NCBI GenBank assembly: GCA_965222575.1
Contig: OZ244958.1
Coordinates: 736,001 to 800,000 of the forward strand
Length of the DNA stretch: 64,000 bases
Source: Alphaproteobacteria bacterium
GTDB taxonomy: Bacteria; Pseudomonadota; Alphaproteobacteria; G965222575
Direction of reading: 5' to 3'
Part shown: positions 40,690 to 64,000 of the stretch, one piece after another
Layout: every line of letters starts with the position of its first letter
How positions within the stretch are numbered: position 1 is the first letter of the stretch
Translations under genes and position numbers: made by a program
Notes under the pieces: model-generated
What the model was told of the DNA's origin: nothing
The model's input: only the letters and a program-made list of their open reading frames with translations
Database searches by the model: none

Positions 40690-40794
40690 GGCACATGGGG
40701 TTCACAGATTAGGGATACCCCTCATTTAAAGCATAAAAAAGTTATTCAGAAGTAAGTGTTGTGTCTCTTCAGGAGAAAAAGAAAGGGGGTGACG

Positions 40795-40825
40795 ACACAC
40801 ACACACACTATATATATAGTGCGTG
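40795..40825. repeat. (AC)n-(TA)n microsatellite forming an inverted repeat
   Basis: acacacacacacactatatatatagtgcgtg. Confidence 0.85.
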
Positions 40826-41043
40826 GAGGAATTGGGGAGGGTGAACAGACCACTTGCTTCAGGCTATGAGGGATGAGGCGAAGCAGTGGGATAGAGAAAA
40901 ACAGACTCCTTTGCCCTTATTCATGCGGGCGGGGTTTTCTTCTTATTTTTTTAGAACCCCCATTTTTCTTTGTAATTTAAGTGTTGATTTTCGGTAAAAT
41001 TCATGTCAGCATAGCAAGACGGAGAAATTCTAAAAGAATCTTA

Positions 41044-44000
41044 ATGAAGCTTTCTTTATTGCCTCATGGCTTTTGTGGACAATCCTTTTTAAAAGGGATG
41101 TTCAAGCTTGCCTGTGTCTTCCTGCTATTTGGAAGTGCGCCAGTCTTTGCCTTACCTTCTTTGAAGTACGGGCGCCCCGTAGACGGAGAAAAAATTAAAA
41201 TTACCAAACCTGCCTCTAACACAATGAACGTGGAGCAAACGGAGCGTCTTGCTGTGATTCATTGGGGAGAATTTACGGTAGGAAATGGGGAAACAGTCAA
41301 TTTTAAAGGCCCCTTGGACTCTGTCATTGTGAATCGTTTTACTCTGGATAAGAACTGGTACAGTAGCAGTCTTAGAGAGACGGATAAAGCTTATTTCAGG
41401 ATTGAGGAGGGGGGTACGGTTACTGGTAGCCTGAGACAAACGCTTGTTTTTGTAGCGCCCGCTCAAGATGTGCACTTAGCAGGACGAATAGACGCTCACT
41501 CTCTGCTCATCACCACCTCAGATTTTGTACATTTTACAGATGTCCTTAAGGAGCAGGAAGCGAAAACGATTACCTCTTCTACAAACTTTTTTCCGGCAAT
41601 AGGGGCAAGAGCTGCTCAAACATTGGCCGCGCGAGGGACAATTACACTTGCAAGTACCGCGGTGATTAACGTTGCAGATGTTGGGCAAATTGCCCTGATT
41701 TCCCCAAAAATCACTATCAACTCCCCAACTATCACCTTCTCTAAACTCTCGAAACAAGACTATCAGATTAAGGGTCTGATTCCAGGAGGGAAGCAACTCC
41801 TCTTAAGCACTGCGCAGTCTTTTACTTTTGATATCACCTCATCAGCTGTTGAATATGCAGAAGACTTAGACCCAAGTAATACTATTACGGAATCTGTCAA
41901 TGTTTTTCAAATCACCAATTGGTTTTCTAGGCAGAAAATAAAGAGTGTAACGGGGGATATAACGACATGGTTGATTCCTAAAATTGATATAAAAACAGGG
42001 ACGAATCTCGTAGCACAAGAAGTGCTTGTCTATTTACCTAGTACGCCTGCGCCATCATCTCCGGAGTTTTTATTAAACCCGGGCGCTTCCATTCAGGCGA
42101 ATCATCTCATTGACTTTCAAGGAAGGGGGGGATTGACCTTCGGCGGTTCCCTCATTATGGAGGGAATTTTAGGCAAAATTCAGATTGAAGGGAGCAGTTT
42201 CAGCTTACCTAGCGGCGGTAAAATTGAACAAATAGTCCCAACAGGGGGGCAAACAGCCGAGATTTTCATCAATATCAAAGGGAAGAGTGTGAGTAGTGTT
42301 CCTCTTGGAGAGAAGGCTATGAAAGGTGGTAGTAGTTCTACGAGTAGTGGCGGGAAGGTTGTTATAAGCGGAGCACACCCTACTAGAGGGGTGGGCATAA
42401 CCCATATCACAGCCGGGGACTTTTTGCACTCAGGGTCTTACGAATCCCATGTGGGTACCATTACACTTCATGCGAAACATGACCTGAGGATACTAGGAGG
42501 GACAGTCAAGATTACGGCAGGCACGGGAGAGGCTTCCATTAAACTGAATGCGGACTATGGAATGTATCTCAATGCAGGTGCTGTGCTGGATATGAGCGCG
42601 CGGGAGGGTAAAACCACTTTTTTCCTACAAGCTTTTAGTTCTATACTCCTGTTCAATAAATTTAAGACGCAACTCCAGGATAAGGCGGACCCCAAGGTGT
42701 TCTTTCACCTAGATAGAGGGGAAGGTATCGTTTTGCAAGGACAGAGAATCAAGCCTATTTATGTGGATATTACCTTTGAATACACGGATAGTACCGGCCT
42801 GAAGACGTTGCGCTTCCTGCCTGCCTTGCATGAACCCGTGAAACCCGAGCCCGTTTTTGTCCATTACGGCGCCGACCAGATGAAAGGGTTTCGTGTCCAA
42901 AATTCTGTTGATGCCAATAGAATACAACATATAAAGTTAATTACCGAATCTCTCAGTACACTGAAATTTGAGGCTCCGATCGATCTTTTTCGTAAAAAAG
43001 GACAAGTTGCGAAGCCGCGCTCTGTAGCCGTTTTCAAGTTTCCAACTTACCAACTCATGGTGGTAGGGTTACCTAGTCTTATACGCCCCTTTGGGGAGAC
43101 ATTAATTGAATTGCAAAAAATACAACAATCTCAAGTCTATGTTTATAAGTCCTACAGTTCAGGTGGGGCGGATACCTTTAAGCTCTCTCAAGTTCTATAT
43201 TCTCCTAAGCCACAAAGTGCTTTTGGTTACTCTATAGCCTTGTCTTTGCATGGTGGTCTTTTGTACTTAGCGGTGGGGGCCCCAAGATTTACGCATGGAG
43301 ACGGTAAAGCAATGGGGGCTGTGTTTCTGTACGCCGCTCGGGAAGGAGATCATTTTAACGAGGAGCAGGTCATCCGCATTGACAGAGAAACCATAGGATG
43401 GCAAGGGGGAAACGAGGATTTCCTCCTGAATTTAGGAGTTGATGTAGATTTTGATGGTGAGAAACTGTATGTGATTAATAATCACTTATTTGATATACAA
43501 ACCATCCTTCCCGCCGGAGCCGACCATCCAGCACGATATAGTTTTTCCTCCCTTTTTGTCTTTTCTCTCAATGGCGCGGGCGCAAAGTTGGAGAGCGTCT
43601 ATCAGTTTCCTCTTAAAGGCTCATCGTTAAGTTTGGATTCCTATTTCACTCTTCCGGAAGCGGTAAGGGTAAGAAACGTGGACTTATATGCTATAGACGA
43701 CAGGGAAAGGAAAGGCTTTTTCAATCACCCTTCTACCAGTGGGTTTACGCATTTGTCTGTTTACAATGGCGTTGTGGCTATTAAGGTTCAAAACTACGCC
43801 GAGTCTTTACTGGTAAAATCAGACGGCGCTCTCCCTACAGGGGATATTCCTTTCTATGTCCAAACAGATGACCAAACAGATGAGGAACAACAACTACAGC
43901 AACTAAAGCAACTACAGGAAAGCTTTGTATTCTTGCTTAGGACGGCGACGCCGAAAAAACCCCCGAAGGTGGTTTTTCAGCTACCTAACCAGGAGGTAAG

Positions 44001-47000
44001 GGGGCATGAGTTCCTGTATTACAATGACCACCATAGGGTAAGTTATCGATTTCTCGACCTAAGATTTGAGGGTACCTTAGGGATTATCTTATTGCCTTCT
44101 TCTGCTGGTGGGTACTCCTTAATCCTACAGGATGGCAGTGGCGTACGGTTTTTAAATCTCAGACCTGATGGATTTGACGATGGCTCTTTTGTCATCAGTC
44201 GCGTCGGTAAAAGTTCCTTTGTGGAGAGTTTTTTCTTTTTGGGCAAAAGTAAAAATTACGAAGGAGAAACCTATGGTATTGGAGTGTTTCAAGACATTCT
44301 AGGGGAGCTGTCTTTTGTCACACTCTCGCCTACGAATAAAGGGGTTATCTCTATTTCTTCTCCTGAGGTAAAAGACAGTATTGGGACGCAGGTGCTATCG
44401 AATTTCAAAAGCCTAGCGGTTAAGGCTTTAGAAGACCAGTATCTTGTTGCGCTTGGGAATGAGGAGCAGTTTGTCTCTCTGTACAAGGTCAGAAAGAGTC
44501 AGAATATCTTGGATATGGCCAATGTGGAATTGCTATTTGTTGTTTGGAATAAGGCGCCGGGCTTTGGGACTTCCTTAGCGTTCGGAGAAAAAGACTTATT
44601 TGTGGGGGCGCCTAATCAAGAAGGCGGGGGAACGGTTTATGCCTATAGACTGATAAAAGGGGATGCACTAGGGGATTTTGCCCTTGGAGCGCCTGTTGAT
44701 TTGTTGGAAGGATTAGAAGAAAGTTATACGGGGTTTGCAAGTGACCTCATCATAGGGGGTAGGATAGCCTTTGATTCCGTTCAGAAGTACTTAGCTATTT
44801 CCGCGCAATCTTCTGACCCTTACGGCACGTCGGCTGTGGGGGTTTTCTCCATCAATCAAGAGGACATAGGCATAGAAAGCAGAGTGGTCTTGATTATAAG
44901 AGGAGGGGCATCTTCTTATGATTCTCTTCCCTTTGAGTTAGGGTCTTTTGTAGGGTGGAGTGGAGATGGCAAGCTCTTAGGCATAAGTTCTCAGAAAAGC
45001 AGTAGCATTTATCTTTTTGATGGGACCTCCTTTGAGTTGAAAGGAAAAATTGGACAATATGATTCGTTGCTTTCTCTTCCGCAAAATCCATTTCTTTTCA
45101 GTTCATTAGAAAATTTTGCTTTGAGTGAAGGGTTTAGAGGTCTGTACACTTTATATGTTGCGCAATCGGAGAAAGTTTTTGTTTATCCTTTGCGGTATGA
45201 GCGCGGCACATTAGTTTGGGAGAAAGAGGGTAAACGTCTTGAGCATAAGCAGACGGATTACAGCTTTGTTTCTGTTTCCGGTCAGGGGCTATTGATTTTG
45301 GATAAAGCCACAGATGATGTCCACTTTCTCAATTTTCAAGCTGATGATATTAGAAAGCAAAGTTTGTCTGTCCTTAAGGTAAGTTTTGATCAGTATTATT
45401 TGGCTATAGGGGAGCCTTTTTATGATTCTAGCAAGGGCAGGGTCATGGTCTATGAGGATGGTGTTGCGGATTTTGCAATGTTACGATTTCAGTTTCAATT
45501 ACAGGGGGAAACTAAAGGGGACTTATTTGGCTGGTCTGTGGAGTTATTACTTGAGGAAAATGGACGACCTGTTCTGTTTGTAGGGTCTCCTCAGGTGACA
45601 GGTAGCAGGAGAGGTGTTGTGCAAGCCTTTTCTCTTGCGGCGTCACTTCAGACTAGTGACCGGGCTCTTTTCACTTTATCCCCATCCCCTAGCATTGAAG
45701 GCGTGAAAGGCTTTGGGTACAGTGTGTCCGCTAAGGGGTCTTATCTCTTGGTGGGGGCGCCGCAGACCAATGAGAAGGGGATGGTTTTCCTGTATCACAA
45801 TGATAACGGCTATACCCTCCAAGGCACCTATGACCTTGATGAGAAGGAGGAGATAGTGGGTTATGGCAGTAACGTTGGGCTGTTCCTTCATGATAGCAAG
45901 CACTATGCTTATGTTATTGGATATAGAGATGATGGGCAAGAGGGAAGGACGTCAACAATATCTCTGTTGAGGGAAGGTGTTGATGTGGCAAGCGGCTTTT
46001 CTTATGTTCCGCATGAGGATGTGGGGATGTTGTATGATTTTGATAAAGAATTGGGGGCATTCTTTTCTTTCAGTGGGGACGTTTCTGAGACCTACTTGGG
46101 GGCATTCGGTCTTGTTGGTGGTAGCACGAAAATCTTACGGTATCAGTTAGCATTTGATGCTCAAGGAGATTTTACTGTTAGACTTGCAGGCACGCCGGCA
46201 AGAGCGCCATCAAACACTGTTGTAATAAGGGGGTTCACCTCTTTATATAACCCCTCTTTGATAGACTTTGATGTGCTGGAAAATCGGTTGATGAAGGATC
46301 ACCTCTTTTTCTTCGTGGTCAACAATGTGGAGATTTTCAAATTAGAAGAAGAAAAATTAAGAGAAGAAGAAGATGGCTTGTTGCAAATTGTTAATATTAG
46401 AACAGGCGTTCAAAAGCAGGAAAAAAGAAGTTTCGATATTTTCAGGGACCCTGATACGCGGAAGTTATATGTAGCAGTAGGAGAGCCTGCTATAGGCTTA
46501 CCCATTGTGGGGAAAGTAACAGTGATGGAAGCCTTCGGTAGCAATTTTGAAGATGCGCAAATACGCTTTACTTTACAAGGTGAGGAGCTAGGGGATTACT
46601 TTGGCTGGTCTGTGAAGTTTCATCTCTTAGAGAAGCATCAAGAGAAAGATCAACTGGCGCTTTTTGTAGGGGCGCCTCAAGCGGAAGGCAGGGGACTGGT
46701 GAAAGTCTTTTCTCTCCAAAAAGAGGAACTCTTCACCCTAAGACCTCCTGAAGTGACCAAAAAAGAGGATGGAAGTCCTTTAGCTATCAGTTCTTTTGGC
46801 TATAGCATTAATGCTATAGAGAGAGACCTTCTCATTGGCGCGCCAGCGACTGGAAAATACAAGACAGGGGCTGTTTTCTTATATAAATGGGTAAAGGATA
46901 GGCAGTTTTATCGATTAGAACAAGGCTTTTTTATGCTGGAGATCAAACCGGAGGCAGTGAAAAGAACGTGGAATGTAAGTAGCACTTCTTACGAGAGTTC

Positions 47001-50000
47001 TGCAGCGCAAGCCTCCCCCCCTAACGAGCATCTAAAAATTCAAGGAATGGGGTCATCTCATGTTTTATTTCGTGACCTTATTCATGTCTCTGGAGTTGAA
47101 ATGGAGGTTGAGAGATTTGGCAGTGAAGTAGGCTTTTTTGATTTTGAAGAGCGGCGCTTTTTCTTTGCTGTTGCTTATGATGTGCAAGACAATGGAGTGA
47201 AGAAAACACTGTTATACGCCTTTAAGAAAGATGACAATGGGGTATTTGCAAAAATCCCCCCTCAGCAACGAGAGCGTGAGGACTCGCGCCAAGACCAAAA
47301 CGATGTTTTTTACAGTAGTGCGCAAACTTACAGCGTCTACTTTTCAGGTCAACACCCTGACAACCCTCAGGGAAAAAAAATACGTGATGATACTGCAATA
47401 GGCCCCATGAAGGTTTTGCCGGGGGAATATGTTGGATTTTTTACGTTTTTCGTTAGTGATTTATGGCGCCATCTGCCGTCTGAAAGGATACCGGCTCGTT
47501 ATGGAGGTAGATATTACTCAGAAATTTTTACGGGCAGGACAGTATCCCAAGGAAGTGTCGGAACGGGTAGTCTTATCCGTTACCGTGTTATAGGTGCTAT
47601 AAAACTTGGTGGTGGTAAAGGGGAGCTTAAGTATTTTTCCATTGGTTCAACTAAAAACCGTGATGGTATTAAGACTCTAAGGGAGGGCAATATCAATCTT
47701 GATATCCCTGGTTCTGAGGGATTGTCTTCTTTATATAACACGGGCTTGGTGACACTCAGGGTTTTGGACAGTTCAGGTATTAATCTTAATGGTAGCCTTT
47801 TCATCACATCAGAGATGAAAATGTTCAGGTTGTCGTTGAATACCGAGATTTTTTATATTGGTGGTAACCCTATGAGCACCCAAGCAGGCTTTAGATTGAA
47901 GGACTATCGCGCTACTAAGGGAAAAAGTTCTTATAGTATGGTCCTAACGCTAGTAGAGGGACGAGAAGAAGTTGGCACACGGGTTTTAGAGCTCTTAAAG
48001 GGGACGAGTCTGCAAATCAGTGAATTAGGAGCCGAAGAAATAAAATGGTTCGTTGGCGATAGAAGAAAAACCAGTATCTCTGTTTTGAAGAAAAGTGGTG
48101 TGACGTTCTTTTTAGCAGTGGGAGAGCCTTTTGTTTCAAAGGGCAGAGTGACGGTGTTTCGATCCAGTGAACAGGATTTTTCAGATGGGCGTGAAGTCTT
48201 TTCGTTAGAAAATCCAAGTAAGGACGGTCTTTTTGGTTGGTCTGTGAAGATGCATTTTCTGGACAGAGATGGAATAGGTATTGGCCTTCCTGAGCCGGTG
48301 CTGTTTGTGGGGGCACCTACTGACCCTGAAGCGAAGGCTAGCACCTATAAGGGGGAGGTACACCTCTATTCTTTCGGGAAAAATGATAAAGGTGAGTATG
48401 ACTATGCCCCTCTACAAACACTGGGTTTGGAGTATGGTTACGAAGCACTGGACTTGCGTGGCTTTGGATATGCCTTAGCGGCCGTGAGATCCTCTCTCAT
48501 CGTTAGTGTACCAACATCATACAAGTCTCTTGGCACAATCTTTGCGCACGGAGGACTCTTTGTATATCACTGGGATAATGATAAGTATGTACTCAAACGT
48601 ACAGAGCTTATGTTTACAGGAGCAGTACCGCGTCCTACAGCTCCAGGTGTCGTCTTTTCGCATCGAACTTCTATTGGTGGCGTTAATAGGAACTTTGGCG
48701 CGGAGGTAGGGGCTTTTATCTACTTTGAGAGCGATTATAGCAAGGATCCCAAGTATCAGGAAAATCCATACACTATCGTTGACCCATGGGTGGCTCATTC
48801 GGTTGATGGTACATACTATTGGGGTATAAATAGAAAAGGCGGAAGCCAGGGAGACTTCCTGCAACGCGACGACGCTCGTGCATATTATCAAAATTATTTT
48901 AAGGGGACACCCCATTTTTATACTGCTGCTTATAATGCGGACAGTTCGAAAACCGTGTTGATATTCTTTAGGGTAGGAGCTGACGGGGGCGTAGACTTCA
49001 CACAAGAGAAAGAACTTGACGGAGAGGTCGGGTCATTTTTTCCCTTTCGGCATAAAGTGTGGCATAGCGCGAATCGAAGCAGTAGTTACTATAACTTATG
49101 GTATACGTCTGATATTTATGTGTGGAAAAATGATGCAAATAGTCGTCTTTATCTCCATAACGTCCCTGTTTATTTGAATGTGATAGGAGGGCTTACCTAT
49201 ACGGCCGAAGAGAAAGGGGAACTTATGTTGATTACGTTGCGCCTGCCACAGCAGCCATATCCAAAAGATCATAATTCTGCTTCCATTACACAAATAACCA
49301 AGCAGACCACAACGTTGTCTCTTGATACACTCTCTCTTGGGGTCGGTTTCACTGATGCTTATAATCCTTCTAAAGTCAGCATTGATGTTGTGGACGGTGC
49401 TAAGATTAACGAGCACGTTTTTGTAACGACAAAGTTGGAAACTTTCCGACTTGGTTACGCAATTGGAGGAGTAGGTGTTCGACATGCCGGCAAAGGTCCT
49501 ATAACATTAGTGCCGTCTTTGCAGGGAGCACATGAGGCTTTCAAGTTAAGAGAAAAAGTGGAGGAAACCAGAACAAGAGTTGTGTTCTTGAACCCCCAAG
49601 CAAGGGCAGAGGGGGTGAGTTTGCCGAACAAGGTGGCGTTGCCGGGTCCTGACCAGGAGCTATTGATCTTTCAAGGGATTGCGTCAATTTCTGTCTTAAA
49701 GGCCTCTGCTCATAAGTTTTACTTAGCCTTGGGAGACCCTACTGATAATAGTAATACAGGTAAGGCTGTGGTGTTTGAAATGGGGCATTACGACTTTTCA
49801 GATGTGCAGAAAACCTTTGAGGTTGAAGGAAGTGCTGCGGGAGATTGGTTTGGCTGGTCTGTGAAGTTACAGTTACTAGATAGGGACGGCGGGGGTGCTG
49901 GCCTTCCTGAGCCAGTGCTGTTTGTAGGCGCGCCTAAAGCCAAAAATGGAAAAGGTTCTGTGGAGGTCTTTGACTTCAAAAAGAAGATCCTTATTCAAAC

Positions 50001-53000
50001 CCTTAGTCCAGAGGCTTCCTTAACTTATGTGCGCGCCTTTGGGTATAGTTTAGGCGGCGGTATTTACAAGAAGCGCCAATTTATTAGAGGTCCCCCTGTG
50101 ACAGAAGACGAAGAGGAGGTACACAATTACCTTCTTGTAGGAGCGCCTGCTAGTGTGCAGTCAGATAGCGTTGATACTCAAGACGGGGCGGCGTTTGTGT
50201 ACAAATGGAACAATGGAGAGGGAGCGGGAGGCGCAACAGTACCCGGAGCCTATGAACTCAAAGGTGTAGCAAGGCCGCCAGACGGGAGTCATATAACAGT
50301 AGGCAGCGTTGTGGAAGGGCAGCTACCTGATAGTGCTACTGTTGGGGGGGTTGACGTTGCCTTGTCTGTCTACAACGAGCATTTTGGCGCTTCTGTTGGG
50401 TTTGTGAATTATGACAGTATCCCCCTTCTTTATGTTGTGAGTTATAATAGTGATAGGACAGGGACAGCTATTTCCGCTTTTCAGTTGTTGAGTAGTGGCA
50501 CCGATGCTGTGAGTTATGGGGGGACGCTTTCAAAAGTAGTAGAGGGGGAATACGGCGCTTTCTTTACATTACCGATACAGGCATGGGAAGTGTCCTACTT
50601 TGAGGGTTCTGCCCAGTATAAGTGGTTTTTGAGTGAGACAGAGGCAGATACCTTTACTCTTCCTGTCGATAGCCTTCACGAAAAGACGGAAAAGACGGCT
50701 ATTGACGTTTTAGGCTTTTTAGTTCGTGGAATAGGGGGGGACTTAACAGTCAAATATGGGGTTGTGAATCCTAATGCAGGAGGGATTGATTTTCAAAGTC
50801 CTGAGATTAAAATTAATACGGGGATAGGTGTGCTTGTGGGATTCACGACTTTATATAGGACCACCAATAAGCTTTCCTTTGCGGCACTTCGGGATCGACT
50901 GTTGATAGGACAGGGAGTAGAGGTGTATATTGCTCCGTTGACTGTGAATGATGAAAAAAATATCACCATAGGGAGTTTACAGACAGTAGCAACACCAGCA
51001 ATTACTTTCACTGAAGTTACAGCCATTGACGTCTTGAAGGAATCTGATAATAAGTTTTACTTAGCGGTAGGAGAAGCTACTGATACTAGTGAGAAAGGTA
51101 AGGTTACAGTGTATGAGGGGACGGATTCTGCGTTTGCCGATATTGCGGTCAAGTTTACAAAGAGTGGAGACAGTGAGGGGGATAGGTTTGGCTGGTCTGT
51201 GAAATTAAATTTATTGGATAAGGACGGAGCGGGTAGTGGCACTCCTGAGCCAGTGCTCTTTGTAGGCGCGCCTAAAGCCAACAGTGAAAAAGGGTATGTG
51301 AAGGTCTTTAATGTTGATGTGTCGGGGTCGTTTATTCAAACCATTAAGTTTGCTCATAAGACTTTCAACAAGATAGCTCTCTTTGGATATAGCATAGGGG
51401 CTAGGGGTGAACACCTTATAGTAGGCATGCCTGGAAGTATAAGAGGCGGGAAGCCCTCTGGAGGGGCTATAGCCCTGAAATGGAACACTTTGAGCAAGCG
51501 GTTCAAATTAGGCAAAGTTTACCTTTACATCACCGACAATGCTCACTACGGAGGCACTTCAGTCGGGGTTTTCATGCACAACAATACAACGCCCTATTTT
51601 TATTATGCGCACTATAGCCCCAGTTCATCAGCCACCGTCATTAGATTGCGCAAGTACGATGGGGGGCATAAGAACTTGGAGGGAACTGAAAAAGACGACG
51701 GAGTCGTATACGGCTCCTTATTTACCATACCGGTTGAGAAGAGTGATGGTAGCTCTACAGAGCTGTTAGGCCTCCTGTACAAGGATGGAGACCAGTTAAA
51801 GATTAAATATGCTTCATTGGCTGTTACGCACCCAAGGAGTAAAAGGAATTTGTTGCCTAGCCTAGGCGATATAGACATTCCTGGGGATGTTGTGGCTGGT
51901 TTTACGCTTCCTGAAACCTATGATACTGACCCTATGCCTAGAAGGTGGTCTTTTGCGGCGCTTCCGGGTCGTCTGTTTATGGGACATGGAGACAAGGTGT
52001 ATGTTGCTTCGTTGACTGTGCCTTCTGTAAGTTTGAGAGGAATAGTAGGAGAAACCTCGCGTCGAGTGGAAAGTGTGACGTTTGATATAGAGAATATAAG
52101 GAAGGCGTCGCTCCCCTTAGGGAAAGTGGCAAAAGTTGTTTTTGACGAGATTTCCTCCCTTTCTGTTTTAAGGGTCACAGATAGTAAGTTCTATTTTGCG
52201 GTAGGAGAATCGGGTTTTGAGGACTTTACAGGTAGGGCTGTGGTGTTTGAGTCGAAAGATTCTGCGTTTTCCGATATCATGCAAAAGTTTGTGATTAAAG
52301 GAGACAATGCAGGGGATTGGTTTGGCTGGTCTGTGAAGTTGGGGCTACTAGATAAGGACGGAGCGGGTGCTGGCCTTCCTGAGGCAGTGCTGTTTGTGGG
52401 GGCGCCTCAAGTGGGGGTGCCTCAAGCGCAAGCCAAGGGTCTTGTGCAGATTTATACCGTTAGGAGTAAGGGAAAACTTCAAACCATAGAGCCGACCTCA
52501 AATGATAATCGCGCCTTTGGCTATAGTGTGGGTGGTGGCTTGCATGAAAACAGCGGTTCATCCTTTCTTGTTGTAGGGGCGCCGCATAAGACGCTTCAAA
52601 GTACAACCGGAGGCAAGGTTTACTTTTATGAATGGAAGGCAGGGCAGTATATCTTGAAAGAAGCGTTTGAGTCCTCTAGTAGCAGTGATACCAACTTTGG
52701 TTTTGCAGTGGGGAGCTTCCTGTATAGTACAACGCCTTATTTTTATGTTGCGGATACCCGTACGACCAGCATTGTTCTTTCCTTCTACCAAGTCAGGGGG
52801 AATGATGTGTTGGTCAAGCGCTTGGAGACCTACAGAAATGGCGCATGGTGGAAAGTGTCCTATGAGGAGGAAGGTGCTCAAGTTTACGAGTGGTATAGCT
52901 TAGAGTCCGAGGCAGATGCCCGCGTAATGGCACTTGGTGCTGCTTCTCCTTCGGTACAAGCTCAAAAAGTAGCCTACACAGGTGACACAGGTGAATACGG

Positions 53001-56000
53001 TTCTCTCTTTACCATACCGGTGAGTGCATGGAAAGTGTCCTATGAGGAGGGAGGTGCTAAAGCTTACGAGTGGTATAGCTTAGGGTCCGAGGCTACTGAC
53101 CGCGTAACGGAAATTGGTGGTAGCGCTTCAGCACAAGAGGGGTATGTAGAGGTTTTAGGCCTCCTGTACAAGGATGGATTACAGTTAAAGAGTAAATATG
53201 CGGCATTGTCTTTTACGACCCCAGGGAGTTTGTTGGCTGACCTAGGTGAGATAGACATTCCTGGAATAGACATTCCTGGAGATGTTGTGGCGAATTTTGG
53301 GTCTCCTTCCACCTATTTTGTTGATGTTGCTAGTACCGCTGTGCCTCGCAGGCTGTCTTTTGCGGCGCTTCCGGATCAGCTTTTTGTTGGAACGGGCTCA
53401 AGTGTGCAGATTTCCGCTTTAACGCCATCTAATCTGGAGGTTATACGTTCTTCAGATACTTCATCTTCTATGAAGGTATCTGGCGTTTTGGTCAACAATG
53501 GAATCAAGAGTTTGTCCTTGACAGCTAATGGCGGTGTTGCTGATGTGCTGTTCCTCGTAGAGGAGGAGGAAGAAGCAGCAACAATTAGTTTCACTGAGAT
53601 TACGTCAATTGATGTCTTGGAGTTTGATGATAATGGTGTTGATAAGTTTTACTTAGCTGTGGGAGAAGCTACTGCTAATAATGAGAGGGGTAAGGTTGTG
53701 GTGTTTGAAGGGTCGAATTCTGAGTTTGCCGATATCGCGCAAAAGTTTAATCTTAAAGGAAACAATGCGGGGGATTGGTTTGGCTGGTCTGTGAAGTTAA
53801 ATTTATTGGATAAGGACGGAGCAGGTAGCGTAAATGCTCCTGAGCCAGTGCTCTTTGTAGGCGCGCCTAAAGTCAACAATGGAATAGGTTATGTGAAGGT
53901 CTTTGACTTTAATAAGAGGGTTATTCAAACCATTAGGTTTGCCCATGGAGCTGTCGATATAAAGCTCCTTGGATATAGCATAGGGGCTAGGGGTGAACAC
54001 CTTATAATGGGTGCGCCTGGAACTACACATGGAACGTATACCATTGGAGCAGTGATATATGGAAAATGGAACACTGCGACAAAGCTGTATACCATGAAGA
54101 TTTCTGTATACGCCCACACGTCACGTGTTTACTTTGGCAATGAAGTCGGGATTTTCCTGCACGCAACGCCCTATTTTTATGCTACGTACTATTACTCACC
54201 CGGGAAATATACCACCGTTAGACTTTTCAAATACGACAGTGGGAATTATCTTCGAGATGTGAGGAGAGAAGGTGTCCGATTCGAATACGGTTCCTTATTT
54301 ACCATACCGGTTGAGAAGAGTGATGGTAGCTCTACAGAGCTGTTAGGCCGCCTGTACAAGGATGGAGCACAGTTAAAGATAAAATATGCGACATTCAATC
54401 CCTTGCTTACAACAGGCCGCTTTCTTGAGGATCGAGGCGAGATAGATATAGAAGGGGATGTTGTGGATGAGTTTACGCTTCCTCCAACCTATGATAATGA
54501 CCCTATGCCTAACAGGTGGTCTTTTGCGGCGCTTCCGGGTCGGCTGTTTATCGGAAATGCAGCAGGGGTGAGGAGTGCCCTTCTTACTGTGGATGATACT
54601 TCTAATCCGTGGACTATTACCCTAGGGAGTTTTGTACAGGCAGTAGGTACACCAGTAGGTACAACAGTAGCACCAGTAGCACCAGTAGCACCACCACCAT
54701 TTACTTTCACTAAAATTACGTCAATTTCTGTCTTGAAGTTTGCTGATAATAAGTTTTACTTAGCTCTGGGAGAAGCTGGTGGAGATGATAGTAAAGGTAA
54801 GGTTGTGGTGTTTTCGGCGGCGGATTCTGCGTTTGCCAGTAGCCAGCAAAGTTTTCATGTTTCAGGACAAAGTGCGGGGGATTACTTTGGCTGGTCTGTG
54901 AAGTTACAGTTACTAGATAAGGACGGCGGGGGTAGCGTAAATGCTCCTGAGCCAGTGCTCTTTGTAGGCGCCCCTAAAGCCAACAGTGGAGTAGGGTATG
55001 TGAAGGTCTTTGGCCTTGATGGGTCGAAGATTGCAAAGATTACGCCGCCTGCTTCTAATGTGCGCGCCTTTGGGTATAGTTTAGGCGGCGGTATTTACAA
55101 GAACCGTCAAGGCAGTAGTAGGAATGTTAATCCTAACACGATGACGCAAGCGCAAGTTGAGGCTTCTCTTAATCCTTTCGATATAAGGGAAGTGACAGAG
55201 AAAGTGGAGAATTACCTGTTGGTGGGGGCGCCTGAGAGTGTGAATACAGATAATACTCAAGTCGGGGCAGTGTTTGTGTACAAATGGTTCAATGGAGGGG
55301 ATAAAGGATTCTATAACTTCAGCATGACAATAACTCCGAGTCAGGCGACTGCGTTGCCTTCTACTGATGGAAGACATTTTGGCGCTTCTGTTGGGTATTT
55401 TAGTTATAGTAGTTGGGGCTTGCATATTTATGTTGTGAGTTATAATAGTACGCATACCAGGACAGCTATATCCACTTTTAGATTCAGTGGTAGCCTTTAC
55501 TATCGCGATAACCTGTCAAAGTATAATATAGTTGGGGAATACGGCGCTTTCTTTACATTGCCGGTACAAGCATTGAAAGTGAGCTACTTGGCGTGGTATG
55601 CGCCAGGAGGAGCATCCGAGAAGTTTGATTTTTCTTGGTCTGCGCCCGCCCCGACAATGAGTCAGCCGATAACTCACTTGCCGGGGTGGAAGATGGGTGA
55701 TAGTGGTGAGTCCTTCAGAAAAAGTGGCTTGGCTCTAAAGACGGAAGAGGATTCTATTGAAGTCTTGGGCTTTTTGGTTCGTGAATCAGGGAGCTTAAAA
55801 ATCAAATATGGGTTTGTGGATGAGACTGCAGGGATAGGGATAAGTGTCAATGCTCAAAGTTCTGATATTTCCATTACTACGGAGACACCGGTAGATGTGG
55901 GATTCACGGGTTTATATGAGAGCAAGCCTTCCTTTGCGGCCCTTCCGGATAACCTGTTTATAGGACATGGAGAAAAGGTGTACAATGCCACTTTGAATGC

Positions 56001-59000
56001 TACTGCAGTAATTAAGGCACAAGCCCGGCGATTGGAGAGTGTGACTTTTAGCATAGACTCTCCGGCAGAGCTTACACTCCCTCCAGTTGTTGCACTTGAT
56101 TTTACTGAGATTACAGCCATTGACGTCTTGAAGGTTGCTGATAAGTTTTACTTAGCAGTAGGAGAAGCTACTGTTAATAGTAATACAGGTAAGGTTACGG
56201 TGTTTGAGGGGCCGGATTCTACGTTTGCCGATATTGCGCAAACCTTTATGGTTGAAGGAGAGGCTGATGAGGAGAGGTTTGGCTGGTCTGTGAAATTACA
56301 TTTATTGGATAAGGCCGGAAATGGCACTCTTGTGCCAGTGCTCTTTGTAGGCGCACCGAAAGCCACCATTGGAAGCACCAGTGGAGCAGGATATGTGAAG
56401 GTCTTTGATGTTGTTGTTGGTGATGGGGTGGATAGGAATATTCAAACCATTACTTATGTTTCTGCCGATGCCACCACCCAAGTAAGTCTCTTTGGATATA
56501 GTATAGGGGCTAGGGATGAACACCTTATAATAGGGGCGCCTGGAACTACATACACTTCAACATCCTCAGTAACCACAACCATTGGATTGATTAGGTTCCT
56601 GCAATGGGACACTACGAATTCGGAGTATGGCGGCATACAAGAAACAGTAATCGAGGACGGCAGTCGATATTTATACTATGGCGCTTCAGTCGGGACTTTC
56701 CTGGACAATACAAAGCCCTATTTTTATGCTACGCAACGTTTTGGCACAAGCACCGTCATAAGACTTTATGAATACATAACGGTTGATGGGAGTTATGAGT
56801 CGGTGAAACAGACAATAGGGGGTGCTGACGCTAAGTTTGAAATCTCACTCGACGGAATCGAATACAGCTCCTTCTTTACCATACCGGTTGAGAAGAGTGA
56901 TGGTAGCTCTACAGAGCTGTTAGCCTTCCTGCACAAGGATGGAGGACAGTTAAAGATAAAATATGCGCTATTGGATGTCACGCTTACAAGCGGATTTCTT
57001 GATTATCGAGGCGATATAGACATTCCTGGGGATGTTGTGGCTGGGTTTGCGATTCCTGAAACCTATGATACTGACCCTATGCCTAGCAGGTGGTCTTTTG
57101 CGGCGCTTCCGGGTCGTCTGTTTATTGGATATGGAACAGAGTTGAGGAATACCTCTCTTACTGGGGTTGATGAACAGATACCACCACCACCACCAACAGC
57201 ACCAACAGCACCAACAGCACCAACAGCAATTACTTTCACTGGGATTACAGCCATTGACGTCTTGAAGGAATCTGCTAATAAGTTTTACTTAGCTCTTGGA
57301 GACTCTACTGATAATAGTAATACCGGTAAGGTTGTGGTGTTTGAGGGGACGGATTCTGAGTTTTCTACTCTCACGCAAACCTTTGAGGTACTAGGAGACA
57401 ATGCGGGGGATTGGTTTGGCTGGTCTGTGAAGTTGGCGCTACTAGATAGGGACGGTGATACTGCTACGCTTTCTCATGAGCCAGTGCTCTTTGTAGGCGC
57501 GCCGAAAGCCACCCTTGGAGGCACCAGTGGAGTAGGGTATGTGAAGGTCTTTGATATTAGTGGGTCGGCTATTAAAACCATTACGCCGCTTAATTCCAGA
57601 GCTTATAATTGGCCTAACGTTCTGACGGTTGCCGCGACCTCCCCCACCTCCTTAGCTAATGTGCGCGCCTTTGGGTATAGTGTGAGTGGCAGTATGCACA
57701 CAACACCTGCATTTGTAAGAAGTATACCTGGTGGTATGGCAGCCGCCGAAAGTTATCTGTTTGTGGGGGCGCCTGAGAGTTACAGTGGAGAAGGAGCGGT
57801 GTTTGTGTACCGATGGAGCGGTGGAGTGGGATTGCCATACGAAGCACCAGGCGGAGAATATGCACTGAAAGGTGTAGTAAGTCCGACGGTGATATCTGAT
57901 CTTAATGATAACGTGTATTCTTCGCTATCCAAGATTCCGGCTGGTGGGAGCGCGTGGTCTGCTGATTATAGCAACCACTTTGGGGCTTCTGTTGGGTATA
58001 ATGTTTATAGAGGTAAGCTTTCTCTTTATGTTGTGAGTTATAATAGTGGGCATACCGAGACAGCACTGTCCGCTTTTGATGTGTCCGGCAATGCTTATTT
58101 TCTCATCCCTGAGAGTACGAAGGTTGAAGTTGGGGAATACGGGGCTTTCTTTACTCTGCCGGTAGTAGAAAACACGGAATCTTATACAGTCTTGGGCTTT
58201 TTGGTTCGTGACAGTGGCTTAAAAATCAAATATGCCTTGCAGAGTGCAAGCGGGATTAGTTTTCAAAGTGCTGATATCACCATTCCTACGGGGACAGGTA
58301 TAACAGATGTAGGTGAGAAATTCACGAATTTGTATACGACCACCAATAAGCTTTCCTTTGCGGCGCTAACAGATAAGCTGTTTATTGCACAGGGAACAGG
58401 CGTGAAGCGCACCTCTCTTACGGCTTCTGGAATCACTATTGTTAGTGGTGGGGGTACTGTGTACATCAATGCTGTGTCGTTTAACATAGGGAATACTATG
58501 GAGACTTTGATAGGGCAGGCACCAACAGCACCAACAGAACCAACAGCAATTACTTTCACTGGGATTACAGCCATTGACGTCTTGAAGGAATCTGCTAATA
58601 AGTTTTACTTAGCTCTTGGAGACTCTACTGATAATAGTAATACCGGTAAGGTTGTGGTGTTTGAGGGGACGGATTCTGAGTTTTCTACTCTCACGCAAAC
58701 CTTTGAGGTACTAGGAGACAATGCGGGGGATTGGTTTGGCTGGTCTGTGAAGTTGGCGCTACTAGATAGGGACGGTGATACTGCTACGCTTTCTCATGAG
58801 CCAGTGCTCTTTGTAGGCGCGCCGAAAGCCACCCTTGGAGGCACCAGTGGAGTAGGGTATGTGAAGGTCTTTGATATTAGTGGGTCGGCTATTAAAACCA
58901 TTACGCCGCTTAATTCCAGAGCTTATAATTGGCCTAACGTTCTGACGGTTGCCGCGACCTCCCCCACCTCCTTAGCTAATGTGCGCGCCTTTGGGTATAG

Positions 59001-62000
59001 TGTGAGTGGCAGTATGCACACAACACCTGCATTTGTAAGAAGTATACCTGGTGGTATGGCAGCCGCCGAAAGTTATCTGTTTGTGGGGGCGCCTGAGAGT
59101 TACAGTGGAGAAGGAGCGGTGTTTGTGTACCGATGGAGCGGTGGAGTGGGATTGCCATACGAAGCACCAGGCGGAGAATATGCACTGAAAGGTGTAGTAA
59201 GTCCGACGGTGATATCTGATCTTAATGATAACGTGTATTCTTCGCTATCCAAGATTCCGGCTGGTGGGAGCGCGTGGTCTGCTGATTATAGCAACCACTT
59301 TGGGGCTTCTGTTGGGTATAATGTTTATAGAGGTAAGCTTTCTCTTTATGTTGTGAGTTATAATAGTGGGCATACCGAGACAGCACTGTCCGCTTTTGAT
59401 GTGTCCGGCAATGCTTATTTTCTCATCCCTGAGAGTACGAAGGTTGAAGTTGGGGAATACGGGGCTTTCTTTACTCTGCCGGTAGTAGAAAACACGGAAT
59501 CTTATACAGTCTTGGGCTTTTTGGTTCGTGACAGTGGCTTAAAAATCAAATATGCCTTGCAGAGTGCAAGCGGGATTAGTTTTCAAAGTGCTGATATCAC
59601 CATTCCTACGGGGACAGGTATAACAGATGTAGGTGAGAAATTCACGAATTTGTATACGACCACCAATAAGCTTTCCTTTGCGGCGCTTACGGATCAGCTG
59701 TTTATTGCACAGGGAACAGGCGTGAAGCGCACCTCTCTTACGGCTTCTGGAATCACCACTGGTGGTAGTAGTAGTAGTGGGTACTACATCACTGGGGTAG
59801 AGTTTACCATAGGGAGTACCATGGAGACTTTGATAGGGCAGGCACCAACAGCACCAGTAGCACCAGTAGCACTAGCACCACTAGCACTACCAGTTGCTTT
59901 CACTGGGATTACGGCGATTGATGTCTTGAAGGAATCTGCTAATAAGTTCTATTTAGCAGTAGGAGAAGCTGCTGATAATAGTAATACCGGTAAGGTTGTG
60001 GTGTTTGAGGGGACGGATTCTGCGTTTGCCGGTATCAAGCAAACCTTTGAGGTTAAAGGAGGTGCTCCAGAGGAGTGGTTTGGCTGGTCTGTGAAGTTGT
60101 TCCTACTAGATAGGGACGGTGATACTGTTACGCTTTCTCCTGAGCCAGTGCTCTTTGTAGGCGCGCCTAAAGCCAGCCCAACCATCAGAGGAACAGTCAC
60201 CAGTGGAGTAGGCTATGTGAAGGTCTTTGATATTAGTGGGGGGGATATTCAAACCATTACTCGTCCTTTTTACGATGCCGATTCCCAAGTACGTCTCTTT
60301 GGATATAGCATAGGGGCTAGGGGTGAACACCTTATAGTAGGCATGCCTGGACTAGAATACAGCGGTTCTGGGACCATTGGTCTGATTAGTTTCTGGAAAT
60401 GGAAGATTAGTAGTATTAATCCATCGCTGTCTCAATATGACATGTCACAAGAATTTTTAGCTGGCGGCATTACCTACCTTGGCGCGCAAGTCGGGGCTTT
60501 CATGCATACTACAACGCCCTATTTTTATGCTACCAATGCTACTTCTTCTGGCGGCACCACCATTAAACTTTATCAACCTGCAGGCAACGGTTATGCACAA
60601 ATTGTCCTTCAGGAAACCGGAGTCGAATACGGCTCCTTCTTTACCATACCGGTTGAGAAGCAAGATGGTAGCTCTACAGAGCTATTAGCCTTCCTGCACA
60701 AGGATGGAGGACAGTTAAAGATTAAATATGCGACATTGGATGTCACACTTGCAAGCGGATTTCTTGAGTATCGAGGCGATATAGAAATTCCTGGGGATGT
60801 TGTGGATGATTTTTCGCTTCCTCCAACCTATGATACTGACCCTATGCCTAGAAGGTGGTCTTTTGCGGCACTTCCGGGTCGTCTGTTTATGGGACATGGA
60901 GCAGAGTTGAAGAGTACCCTTCTTACTGTGGATGATACTTCTTGGAGTATTACCCTAGGTACAGAGACAGAACCAACAGCAGTTACTTTCACTGGGATTA
61001 CAGCCATTGATGTCTTGAAGGTTGCTGATGCTACTGCTGGTGATAAGTTTTACTTAGCCGTGGGATACCCTACTGATACTAATGATAAAGGTAAGGTTAC
61101 AGTGTTTGAGGGGACGGATGCTGAGTTTGCTACTCTCACGCAAACCTTTGAGGTATTAGGAGACAATGCGGGGGAGTGGTTTGGCTGGTCTGTGAAGTTG
61201 TCCCTACTAGATAGGGACGGTGATACTGTTACGCTTTCTCCTGAGCCAGTGCTCTTTGTAGGCGCACCGAAAGCCACCATTGGAAGCACCAGTGGAGTAG
61301 GGTATGTGAAGGTCTTTGATATTAGTGGGGGGGATATTCAAACCATTACGCCGCTTAATTTCAAAGATTATGTAACCCTTACTCTGATTACTGACTTAAC
61401 TTATGTGCGTTCCTTTGGGTATAGTGTGAGTGGCAGTGTGATAGAAAGCGCCAGCCACTCCCGCTACAGAAAAGAAAGTTATCTGTTTGTGGGGGCGCCT
61501 GCGAGTACACATAACAATGTTGAAGAAGGAGCGGCGTTTGTGTACCGGTGGAACAATGCGGCAAACGGAGAATATCAAGTGAAAAGTTTAATAAGGCCGA
61601 CGGCGAATAGTCATGGTGCCGGTATCACTACAGCATATAATATGGTACCCCAGGTTCCGAGTGTGTCTCCGTGGAGTCCTGATTATAGCAACCACTTTGG
61701 GGCTTCTGTTGGGTATAATGTTTATAGAAGTGAGCTTTACCTTTATGTTGTGAGTTATAATAGTAATAGGACAGAGACAGCACTGTCCGCTTTTGTTGTG
61801 TCCAGTCATTGGTGGGCTTTCCATCAAGGTAGTTATTCGAAGGTTGAAGCTGGGGAATACGGGGCTTTCTTTACTCTGCCGGTAGTAGAAAACACGGAAT
61901 CTTATACAGTCTTGGGCTTTTTGGTTCGTGACAGTGGCTTAAAAATCAAATATGGGGTTATAGACCCTAGCCGTCGCTCTCCCAACAAATGGCTTGTTTT

Positions 62001-64000: not shown

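Follow-up and report, generated by a model that had tools for sequence, protein, structure and literature searches.

The DNA analysed here probably encodes (at a probability of about 0.6) a single giant exported surface protein, an adhesin or coat fibre, whose array of modules evolves by duplication and unequal recombination. One open frame of 42,327 nt, equivalent to 14,108 aa, runs without a stop at the genome level and accounts for 3.5% of a 1.2-Mb genome, itself a single contig containing no N. Because it takes up such a share of the genome, the protein is probably central to holding a partner or a surface. The gene belongs to a small-genome, deep-branching alphaproteobacterium-like organism; recA is present in its genome, and a search for lifestyle markers gave no match to CagE_TrbE_VirB. 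TLC was not matched either, which is uninformative since its control was positive in none of the genomes.

The window, which is the whole stretch of 64,000 nt that was analysed, holds the 5′ 23 kb of the gene (Table 1). The frame is open at the 3′ end of the window, encloses the interval 49670-64000 covered by the original prediction, and ends at window-equivalent position 83307 (genome C1:819307). A promoter scan upstream of the gene gave one match compared to a mean of 0.9 in shuffled sequences, which is chance level.

In the mechanism that we propose, a Sec signal and a diverged two-partner secretion (TPS) domain would direct export through a TpsB (Omp85-type) channel, and the passenger would consist of 29 beta-propellers strung together by flexible Pro/Thr/Ala linkers. 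The array would have grown as units of one or two modules were duplicated in tandem. Module heads, being alike in DNA across types, would supply the homologous stretches on which unequal recombination and gene conversion act, and recombination guided by these heads would move, copy, delete and fuse the bodies that follow them. Such shuffling of bodies could yield local alternation of types, mosaics and differences between strains. We infer that the recombination is a by-product of repetition and not a programmed system.

Putative secretion leader and predicted propeller fold

The signal region of the giant protein aligns with that of a 4,201-aa paralogue, a protein with related modules whose TPS domain is genuine (75.5 bits). 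For the giant protein itself, Pfam TPS (PF05860) scored 18.6 bits (E 0.0019), under the cut-off of 33.5; the PDB entry for EtpA (8cpk_A) matched the N-terminal TPS-like domain with E 5.8e-4; and this domain can be aligned in register with that of the paralogue (E 4e-4). The agreement of these three weak matches points to a TPS-type leader. NPNL/NPNGI-type motifs are typical of TPS domains, and the first 400 aa of the giant protein contain no NP[NS] motif. No homologue of the N-terminal 600 aa was found at E <= 0.001 among longer proteins, and a fold prediction of the N-terminus from a two-row alignment was unusable (pLDDT 35.6). NCBIfam returned no family for the N-terminus, the C-terminus or single modules, FG-GAP included, and Pfam returned none on the C-terminal 303 aa. 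A TpsB-like gene is present 41 kb upstream of the giant gene and not adjacent to it: a 574-aa open reading frame (genome C1:733722-735446) with an ShlB match of 25.2 bits (cut-off 22.7) and an Omp85 score of 18.4, in which no POTRA match was found.

For each module, the predicted fold is an FG-GAP beta-propeller that resembles integrin alpha and has about six blades. The AlphaFold model of modules M12 and M13 (mean pLDDT 73.4) is all-beta, and its 24 strands per module by DSSP correspond to about six four-stranded blades; the linkers between modules have pLDDT of 30-49. The best Foldseek match of this model is integrin alpha-V (9ind_A, E 2.4e-11). In VIA-align, integrin alpha-L (5e6u_A) gave Z 23.5 and rmsd 3.4 over 293 aligned residues, and the six-bladed NHL structure 1q7f_B gave Z 21.5 and rmsd 3.3 over 256 of 282 residues; seven-bladed integrins align over just 281-313 residues. 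When the part of the protein encoded in the window was searched in five pieces, Pfam FG-GAP_2 (PF14312) exceeded its cut-off of 23 bits in three of them (31.8, 38.2 and 26.5 bits). In a protein atlas, the only clusters returned were of the FG-GAP kind, at 0.88, under the atlas's own trust level.

Common heads and type-specific bodies

The anchor FGWSV occurs 29 times in the giant protein at a spacing of 352-544 aa, and a module profile search recovered 29 full modules in tandem (M01 to M29), 352-544 aa long and mostly 30-60% identical to each other. The eleven modules originally described are M04-M14 (49663-63777), and the order given for them, B-A-hybrid-A-B-A-B-B-A-B-A, is correct. The A and B types are real. 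By regular expression, all five A motifs are found in M05, M09, M12 and M14 and four of five in M07, while all five B motifs are found in M04, M10, M11, M13 and M15 and four of five in M08; in M06, two B motifs are present and A motifs are absent. A tree built on 208 body columns recovers A as a clade (support 99) and B together with M20-M23 as another (support 96); at least three more types exist. What had been taken for A and B modules turn out to be bodies specific to each type. They belong to larger modules, which all open with a shared two-blade head, about 130 residues long, and continue with a body of about four blades. The framework falls into 22 blocks, and length varies at set positions between them, among others after GAP and around PYFY, much as predicted.

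Table 1. Features of the giant gene and its surroundings in window coordinates
Feature	Position	Strand	Remarks
Sigma-70-like promoter match	40792..40820	+	sole match upstream of the giant gene; 17-nt spacer is a (CA)7(TA)5 dinucleotide run
Giant gene, 5′ 23 kb	40981..64000	+	earliest possible start GTG 40981; likelier ATG 41044 or ATG 41098
Probable Sec signal peptide	41098..41151	+	residues 40-57, hydrophobic run ending VFA then LP; read from the translation
Putative diverged TPS domain	41197..41472	+	Pfam, PDB and paralogue matches
N-terminal stalk	41473..45339	+	no named family; two partial FG-GAP-like matches
Partial FG-GAP-like match 1 in stalk	43183-43389	+	aa 735-803
Partial FG-GAP-like match 2 in stalk	44473-44664	+	aa 1165-1228
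M01	45340-46413	+	divergent early module related to M27-M29
M02	46414-48045	+	divergent early module related to M27-M29
M03	48046-49662	+	divergent early module related to M27-M29
M04, type B	49663..51000	+	motifs and body tree
M05, type A	51001..52134	+	motifs and body tree
M06, mosaic	52135..53592	+	blade 3 B-like, blade 4 M24/M25-like, blades 5-6 A-like
M07, type A	53593..54699	+	body tree and motifs
M08, type B	54700..56091	+	38-aa loop after FGYS; A-like tail
M09, type A	56092..57228	+	body tree and motifs
M10, type B	57229..58548	+	57219-58367 identical to 58539-59687 in M11
M11, type B	58549..59892	+	M10 copy over 1,149 nt; tail M13-like
M12, A body, head grouping with B modules M10/M11/M13	59893..60993	+	modelled propeller, 24 strands
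M13, type B	60994..62298	+	body tree; modelled jointly with M12
M14, type A with long inserts	62299..63777	+	inserts of 34 aa (following strand 3 of blade 2) and 22 aa (ahead of blade 4)
M15 head, type B	63778..64000	+	rest of M15 and 14 more modules lie beyond the window
9-nt tandem repeats encoding a Pro/Thr/Ala-rich inter-module linker	63704..63766	+	example
Further 9-nt-repeat linkers	57182-57228, 58519-58548, 59842-59887, 62260-62298	+	same repeat kind

The original prediction described the framework DNA as nearly identical between copies, which holds for M10 and M11 (1,149 identical nt) and not elsewhere. Outside this pair, head DNA is about 72-83% identical (pair range 62-90%) and body DNA ranges from 43 to 86% between pairs; A and B bodies share just 37-53%, with third positions 26-45% identical, which is near random. 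In 25 A-B pairs, heads have a median pS of 0.27 and bodies a saturated 0.65, compared to 0.27 and 0.26, respectively, in 10 A-A pairs. These values support different histories for heads and bodies. The head of M12, an A-type module, groups with those of its B neighbours M10, M11 and M13 (support 96/97), a grouping that the body columns reject (p-AU 2.9e-33). An A clade is not rejected by the AU test on head DNA (p 0.136), so that two observations carry the evidence from heads, the contrast at synonymous sites and the one supported grouping, that of M12.

Four modules (M06, M11, M12 and M16) are mosaics, and M06 and M16 change their nearest relatives along their length. M06 was rightly called a hybrid: when it is compared with M24 and M05, the agreement is with M24 at 149 of 245 informative sites before the break and with M05 at 81 of 105 after it, with none of 1000 permutations as extreme. 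The max-chi-square test was also significant in supposedly pure controls (0/1000 in M05, M07 and M08, 4/1000 in M09 and 11/1000 in M14), which means either widespread mosaicism or an oversensitive test. Two-module units have been duplicated, with M9:254-M11:110 matching M12:242-M14:103 at 79% over 2,090 nt and M20-M21 matching M22-M23 at 67.5% over 2,510 nt; this bears out part of the proposal that an A/B pair is the repeating unit.

A related assembly offers a comparison between strains in the form of protein fragments, whose ends look frameshifted and whose joins are seen at the protein level only. On its 15,303-bp contig, an A module 93.5% identical to M12 is flanked by a tail resembling that of M15 and a body resembling that of M17, the position that the mosaic M16 occupies here. 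Joins are non-collinear in fragments P0002 and P0006, the latter joining M06 directly to M08, and collinear in P0003, P0004, P0005 (M03-M04, 95-96%) and P0012 (M27-M28, 92-94%). Module order therefore appears not to be invariant, as far as the protein fragments of one assembly go, and the fixed order that the original prediction had named as evidence to the contrary is not seen in them. Among fragments of 275-875 aa, no orthologue of M07 was better than 56% over half the query, and a cluster look-up assigned no names to the fragments. The differing histories of heads and bodies, the mosaics and the other module neighbours in the related assembly support recombination between modules, as predicted. 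Searches elsewhere suggest that the module as a whole is confined to this lineage: matches in genome contigs were limited to 10 generic FG-GAP loci of actinomycetes (26-33% identity), metagenome contigs gave no match to M12 or alignment A1 as query, and none of 40 class-level genomes gave a match.

Selection and alternative explanations

That the giant gene was created by misassembly, or is a pseudogene in decay, is very unlikely. The fragments of the related assembly do have out-of-frame tails at their ends, and the short-read unitigs X1 and X2 measure just 200-470 nt here and have many joints. Against this stand the 14,108 codons without a stop in a gap-free contig, a core-codon dN/dS (omega) of 0.20-0.39, and the coverage of 30 of 30 bins of the examined stretch by both X1 and X2. 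The joint sides of these unitigs (24-61 nt) are flagged as unreliable and allow no inference on module order, and their depth is highest over heads, a sign that other modules cross-map there. The A/B alternation, for its part, might be kept by selection on folding if like neighbours misfold together and arrays of unlike bodies survive, with recombination merely the source of variants; this explanation appears improbable. A and B bodies are far apart, and in M04-M15 the mean body identity is higher at lag 2 (0.45) than at lag 1 (0.37). There is just one same-type neighbour pair in this part of the array, and as few were seen in 670 of 20,000 random orders. However, the lag-2 value was reached by 504 of 5000 random orders and the lag-1 deficit by 1347 of 5000, and neither is significant. 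Adjacent modules can also be close, at 95% identity in M10/M11, 67% in M24/M25 and 54% in M20/M21. In M16-M29, pairs are most similar when adjacent: body identity drops with distance from 0.46 to 0.30, and no alternation is seen. The predicted alternation is thus local, and a strict A/B unit is ruled out for the array as a whole.

The original prediction saw in the array a receptor repertoire within one gene. Stated in full, homology of the head and framework would exist to reshuffle bodies bearing loops, which would give a renewable ligand-binding or antigenic repertoire under diversifying selection. We consider this unlikely, though less so than the two explanations above. The mosaic modules and the changed neighbours in the related assembly agree with it, as does a between-strain identity of 0.821 in variable segments (n=1029) versus 0.901 in the framework (n=2355). 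In addition, X1 and X2 carry the M06 FGYS-GAP loop region only in diverged form (16-22 differences in 207-381 nt), whereas 8 of 16 X1/X2 pieces among those listed show no differences. With nine pairs pooled, omega is 0.20 in head and 0.39 in body core codons, 1.16 and 1.03, respectively, in the remaining framework codons, and 0.79 in aligned variable segments. The core residues thus appear to be under purifying selection while other codons drift near the neutral rate. The values of 1.03-1.16 could be read in favor of a repertoire, and positive selection at some sites could be hidden in them, but their intervals include 1. By blade topology, the variable segments fall on both propeller faces, as long inserts of up to 38, 59, 56 and 40 aa occur in loops 1-2 and 3-4 and others of up to 21 and 53 aa in loops 2-3 and 4-1; the original prediction had expected one face and had itself named a wider scatter as evidence to the contrary. 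None of 898 blastn HSPs lies outside the giant gene, which leaves no donor copies, tblastn found only the 4,201-aa paralogue there, and no reverse transcriptase (RVT_1) was found, with the control positive in 3 of 14 genomes. On these results, we reject a DGR or cassette variation system. The single nearly identical module pair makes the recombination substrates poor. The evidence lends no support to a programmed repertoire of receptors or antigens.

Equally doubtful is the idea that the two-blade head is a built-in recombination scaffold, kept alike in DNA in front of otherwise unrelated propeller bodies so that these are swapped, copied and deleted as cassettes within the gene. If it were true, strains would carry specific propeller combinations, a bacterial counterpart of exon shuffling in a single frame.

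Comparison with known systems

Compared to integrin alpha and other FG-GAP propellers, the modules share FG...GAP in blades 2 and 3, four-stranded blades and structural Z scores of 21-23.5. Integrin calcium hairpins lie in 1-2 loops and carry the full motif DxDxDGxxD; at the corresponding calcium-binding place, in the blade-2 loop, 22 of the 29 modules have a DxD[GN] motif. The modules differ in having about six blades in the model instead of seven, in the lack of motifs in blades 4-6, in the arrangement of 29 propellers in a row, and in an identity to integrins of just 11-14%.

Like TpsA exoproteins (FHA, HMW1 and EtpA, 8cpk), the giant protein has a probable N-terminal signal peptide followed by a TPS-like domain and is very large, and the genome also encodes an ShlB-family protein and another TpsA-like giant. 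Known TpsA passengers are beta-helices, whereas the passenger here is predicted to be a chain of propellers; furthermore, the TPS domain scores below the cut-off, lacks the usual short motifs, and is not accompanied by an adjacent transporter gene. In a full-text search of the literature, we found no description of a TPS leader and an FG-GAP propeller chain in one adhesin.

Periscope or variable-length repeat adhesins (Rib, SasG/Aap and Sgo_0707) are tandem folded surface domains whose number and order are altered by intragenic recombination, in arrays of small, highly similar domains (PMC8201768). Tandem folded domains in a surface protein and recombination within the gene are common to both. 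The modules of the giant protein are, in contrast, 352-544 aa long and of several types, and only their heads are alike in DNA; high DNA identity is found in the pair M10/M11 and not throughout the array. With giant bacterial proteins of more than 10,000 aa (bioRxiv 10.1101/2023.11.21.568195), the size class is shared. A generic FG-GAP_2 giant (P0010) likewise has many FG-GAP repeats (28 stretches). Such outside FG-GAP giants match only profile positions ~20-270 (head and blade 3) and carry other domains, e.g., Laminin_G_3 and fn3; none has the module described here.

The protein would combine two known things, a TPS-type secretion leader and 29 predicted integrin-like propellers in a chain. 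Its head and body design offers a clean natural case of how the length and identity of homology steer intragenic recombination, and suits asking whether the reshuffling of modules alters binding. If the reshuffling is adaptive, it would represent a new path to surface variation that works without dedicated machinery.

The giant gene and its predicted propeller modules

The genome is a single contig of 1,215,846 bp (45.7% G+C, zero N), and the reading frame that runs off the end of the window is only the 5′ portion of a giant frame of 42,327 nt encoding 14,108 residues. This frame takes up 3.5% of the genome; of the nine frames exceeding 1,500 aa, no other comes close to it in length. The string FGWSV occurs 29 times in the product, 352–544 aa apart, and a module profile identified 29 full copies (M01–M29, residues 1456–13902) and two partial matches farther upstream. 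In their alignment, segments of widely different length intervene between 22 framework blocks; protein identity between modules is mostly 30–60%, and 95% for M10/M11 only.

The fold of M12+M13 was modelled from 28 two-module alignment rows. The model is all-beta (mean pLDDT 73.4, pTM 0.53) with 24 strands per module, which implies six four-stranded blades. Foldseek ranks the integrin alpha-V propeller first (9ind_A, E 2.4e-11), and VIA-align matched the model to integrin alpha-L 5e6u_A (Z 23.5, rmsd 3.4, 293 aligned) and to 1q7f_B, a six-bladed NHL domain (Z 21.5, rmsd 3.3, 256/282 aligned). These matches make each module a predicted FG-GAP-related propeller, more likely with six blades than with the seven of integrins. 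The linkers between modules are Pro/Thr/Ala-rich, of low model confidence and coded by 9-nt tandem repeats, slippage of which could alter linker length.

Residues 40–57 are hydrophobic and signal-like in translation and are followed by a putative TPS secretion domain with a weak Pfam score (E 0.0019, 18.6 bits vs. a cut-off of 33.5). This region matches the solved EtpA TPS domain 8cpk_A (E 5.8e-4), and, starting at the signal peptide, the N-terminus aligns in register with that of a 4,201-aa paralogue (E 4e-4) carrying a genuine TPS domain (75.5 bits). NP[NS] motifs are present in the paralogue and number zero in the first 400 aa of the giant; the predicted model of the giant N-terminus (pLDDT 35.6) is too low for use. 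A candidate transporter gene lies 41 kb upstream, just outside the window, and adjoins an MlaA lipoprotein gene. Only one promoter-like sequence precedes the giant gene, a number at chance level (0.9 expected); the dinucleotide run within it resembles in layout repeat-controlled phase-variable promoters.

Coordinates of the giant gene and associated features (C1, genome contig; L054–L056, stretches of C1)
Feature	Position	Remarks
Giant frame, 5′ portion	window 40981–64000	
Linker-coding 9-nt tandem repeats	window 57182–57228, 58519–58548, 59842–59887, 62260–62298, 63704–63766	3–7 copies
Giant C-terminus beyond M29	L054:7396–8304	last 303 aa; ~200 residues without family match, then strongly acidic Glu/Asp tail
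Candidate ShlB/FhaC-family outer-membrane transporter, 574 aa	C1:733722–735446 (L055:295–2019)	25.2 bits, cut-off 22.7
Paralogue, 4,201 aa	C1:429846–442451 (L056)	several partial FG-GAP-like modules; long acidic Pro/Thr/Asp-rich repeat tail
(CA)7(TA)5 run	window 40792–40830	spacer of sole promoter-like match upstream of giant gene
Divergent neighbour of giant gene, 664-aa ORF	window 38695–40689 (−)	no Pfam family; weak SMC-like coiled-coil matches only
548-aa ORF with collagen triple-helix repeats	window 25673–27319 (+)	Pfam E 6.4e-14; unusual for such a small genome

Module types, exchange and alternation

The original prediction distinguished two module types in the order B-A-hybrid-A-B-A-B-B-A-B-A (M04–M14), and this order is correct. 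Its motifs assign M05, M07, M09, M12 and M14 to type A and M04, M08, M10, M11, M13 and M15 to type B. In agreement, a tree of 208 body columns (the body being the type-specific remainder of a module after its head, the shared first ~130 codons) contains an A clade (99), a clade of B with M20–M23 (96) and M06 as sister to A (90); a more careful body tree supports the A clade at 99/98.9.

When five modules of each type were compared in sliding windows (M11 omitted as a copy of M10), identity showed a sharp boundary between IQTI and FGYS. In heads, A–B DNA identity is 0.72–0.79 (third positions 0.71–0.81), on a par with A–A (0.75–0.83) and B–B (0.73–0.83). In bodies, from the boundary to SFAAL at alignment column ~813, close to the end of the module, A–B identity is 0.37–0.53 (third positions 0.26–0.45), whereas identity within types holds at 0.49–0.88. 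Median synonymous difference in heads and bodies, respectively, is 0.27 and 0.65 (saturated) for 25 A–B pairs, 0.27 and 0.26 for 10 A–A pairs, and 0.24 and 0.39 for 10 B–B pairs. Thus, anciently split A and B bodies bear heads of recent common origin, which requires one or more exchanges where head meets body. In the head DNA tree, which is star-like, the single relevant supported group unites A-type M12 with B-types M10, M11, M13 and M23 (96/97). A single A clade appears in 0 of 200 bootstrap head trees, but the AU test on head DNA does not reject it (p 0.136); body columns reject the M12+B group, which was chosen after the head tree was seen (p-AU 2.9e-33).

Individual modules are also mosaic. 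Blade 3 of M06 is closer to B (DNA identity 0.56–0.58 vs. 0.41–0.46 for A), its blade 4 is closest to M24/M25, and its blades 5–6 are closer to A (0.65–0.75 vs. 0.36–0.55). M16 is M24-like through blade 3, with an A-like blade 5 (0.85) and an M17-like tail. In the Max-chi-square test, none of 1000 permutations was as extreme as the observed signal in M06, in M12 or in M16 (the last compared with M24 and either M05 or M07). Presumed-pure modules were significant as well: M09 (4/1000), M14 (11/1000), and M05, M07 and M08 (each 0/1000), the last three because their tails match another type. This leaves two readings: pervasive exchange, chiefly where body meets tail, or an oversensitive test. M10 and M11 have 1,149 identical nucleotides in common while the M11 tail is M13-like, which suggests that the shared tract arose by recent duplication or conversion. 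Collectively, the mosaic M06, M12 and M16 and the head/body contrast support the predicted recombination. The genome encodes RecA. None of 898 HSPs placed a copy of any part of the gene elsewhere in the genome, and no reverse transcriptase was detected there; together these results rule out a cassette system and a DGR.

Alternation of A and B is seen in M04–M15, which contain one pair of same-type neighbours (as few in 670 of 20,000 random orders), but not in M16–M29, where adjacent modules are most similar and identity drops with distance from 0.46 to 0.30. Even in M04–M15, lag-1 and lag-2 body identities are not significant alone (1347/5000 and 504/5000 random orders). Two-module matches occur between M9:254–M11:110 and M12:242–M14:103 (79% across 2,090 nt) and between M20–M21 and M22–M23 (67.5% across 2,510 nt). 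The alternation is thus a local vestige of duplicated two-module units.

Variable segments and selection

In four-stranded blades, the 1–2 and 3–4 loops lie on one face and the 2–3 and 4–1 loops on the other, and integrins bind ligand on the 2–3/4–1 face. With this fixed geometry and the strand order of the M12+M13 model, the segments after GAP and after PYFY are predicted 2–3 loops of adjacent blades, and the same face bears the variable segments V5 (up to 19 aa) and V9 (up to 53 aa). Equally long inserts are placed on the opposite face: V6 after FGYS (38 aa), V10 (59), V14 after FFTLPV (56), V17 (40) and V4 (34). We infer that variable segments occupy both propeller faces.

Omega, pooled over nine sister-like pairs (Nei–Gojobori) in categories set by cross-module conservation and hence partly circular, is 0.20 (0.14–0.28) in the head core, 0.39 (0.27–0.54) in the body core, 1.16 (0.95–1.42) in the rest of the head, 1.03 (0.90–1.19) in the rest of the body framework, 0.79 in aligned variable segments and 0.92 in linkers. 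The gene is thus maintained, but the greater part of its surface evolves at close to the neutral rate. Pooled pairwise omega for the nine pairs demonstrates no positive selection, although it is compatible with such selection. The observation of conserved frameworks and variable loops was largely right, but a receptor or antigenic loop repertoire is unsupported, with variable segments on both faces and omega near 1.

Related sequences and known systems

When 1.84 billion representatives were searched with the module profile, 19,496 proteins scored E ≤ 0.001. Of the matches inspected, only the top-ranked fragments extend past the head and blade 3, where the large proteins listed stop. The strain comparison used ten such fragments from ENA assemblies, singletons compared at the protein level and mapped window by window and by HSPs with identities of 70% or more (14 retained, weaker ones excluded). 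P0002, P0003, P0004 and P0007 each lie on a 15,303-bp contig, mutually abutting with out-of-frame ends; P0006, P0007 and P0009 end in short tails that look out of frame, and neighbouring fragments abut. The related gene copy is either frameshifted or affected by sequencing errors. Fragments are collinear with this genome over M03–M04 (95–96%), M27–M28 (92–94%), M19–M20 and M21–M22–M23. In P0002, an M15-like tail leads into an A module with 93.5% identity to M12 (body 98–100%); a fusion of M13-like head and M17-like body comes next, ahead of M18 and M19. In this genome, mosaic M16 fills the slot between M15 and M17. P0006 joins M06 straight to M08, the FGYS loop of which is 30 aa shorter in that fragment. 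Framework is more similar between strains (identity 0.901, n=2355) than are variable segments (0.821, n=1029). Two short-read runs contain 0.69 and 0.63 of sampled words, in unitigs of 200–470 nt (at least half at least 99% alike) with joints whose sides are too short for trust; both carry only a diverged version of the M06 FGYS–GAP region.

The 40 nearest genomes in the collection belong to the same class only, each to another family, so the collection contains no close sequenced relative of this organism. The module is absent from all 40, and two metagenome scans gave no match. The nearest matches of the housekeeping protein TGT are Midichloriaceae MAGs (48%), and no VirB4-type protein was found in the genome.

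A full-text literature search found no description of two-partner secretion combined with FG-GAP in an adhesin. Each part of the giant has precedents, in FG-GAP propellers, TPS leaders, giant repeat adhesins and repeat-array recombination. The Periscope protein study (PMC8201768) treats recombination in repeat arrays, bioRxiv 10.1101/2023.11.21.568195 treats giant genes, and a Midichloria preprint describes FG-GAP/VCBS proteins as confined to that genus.
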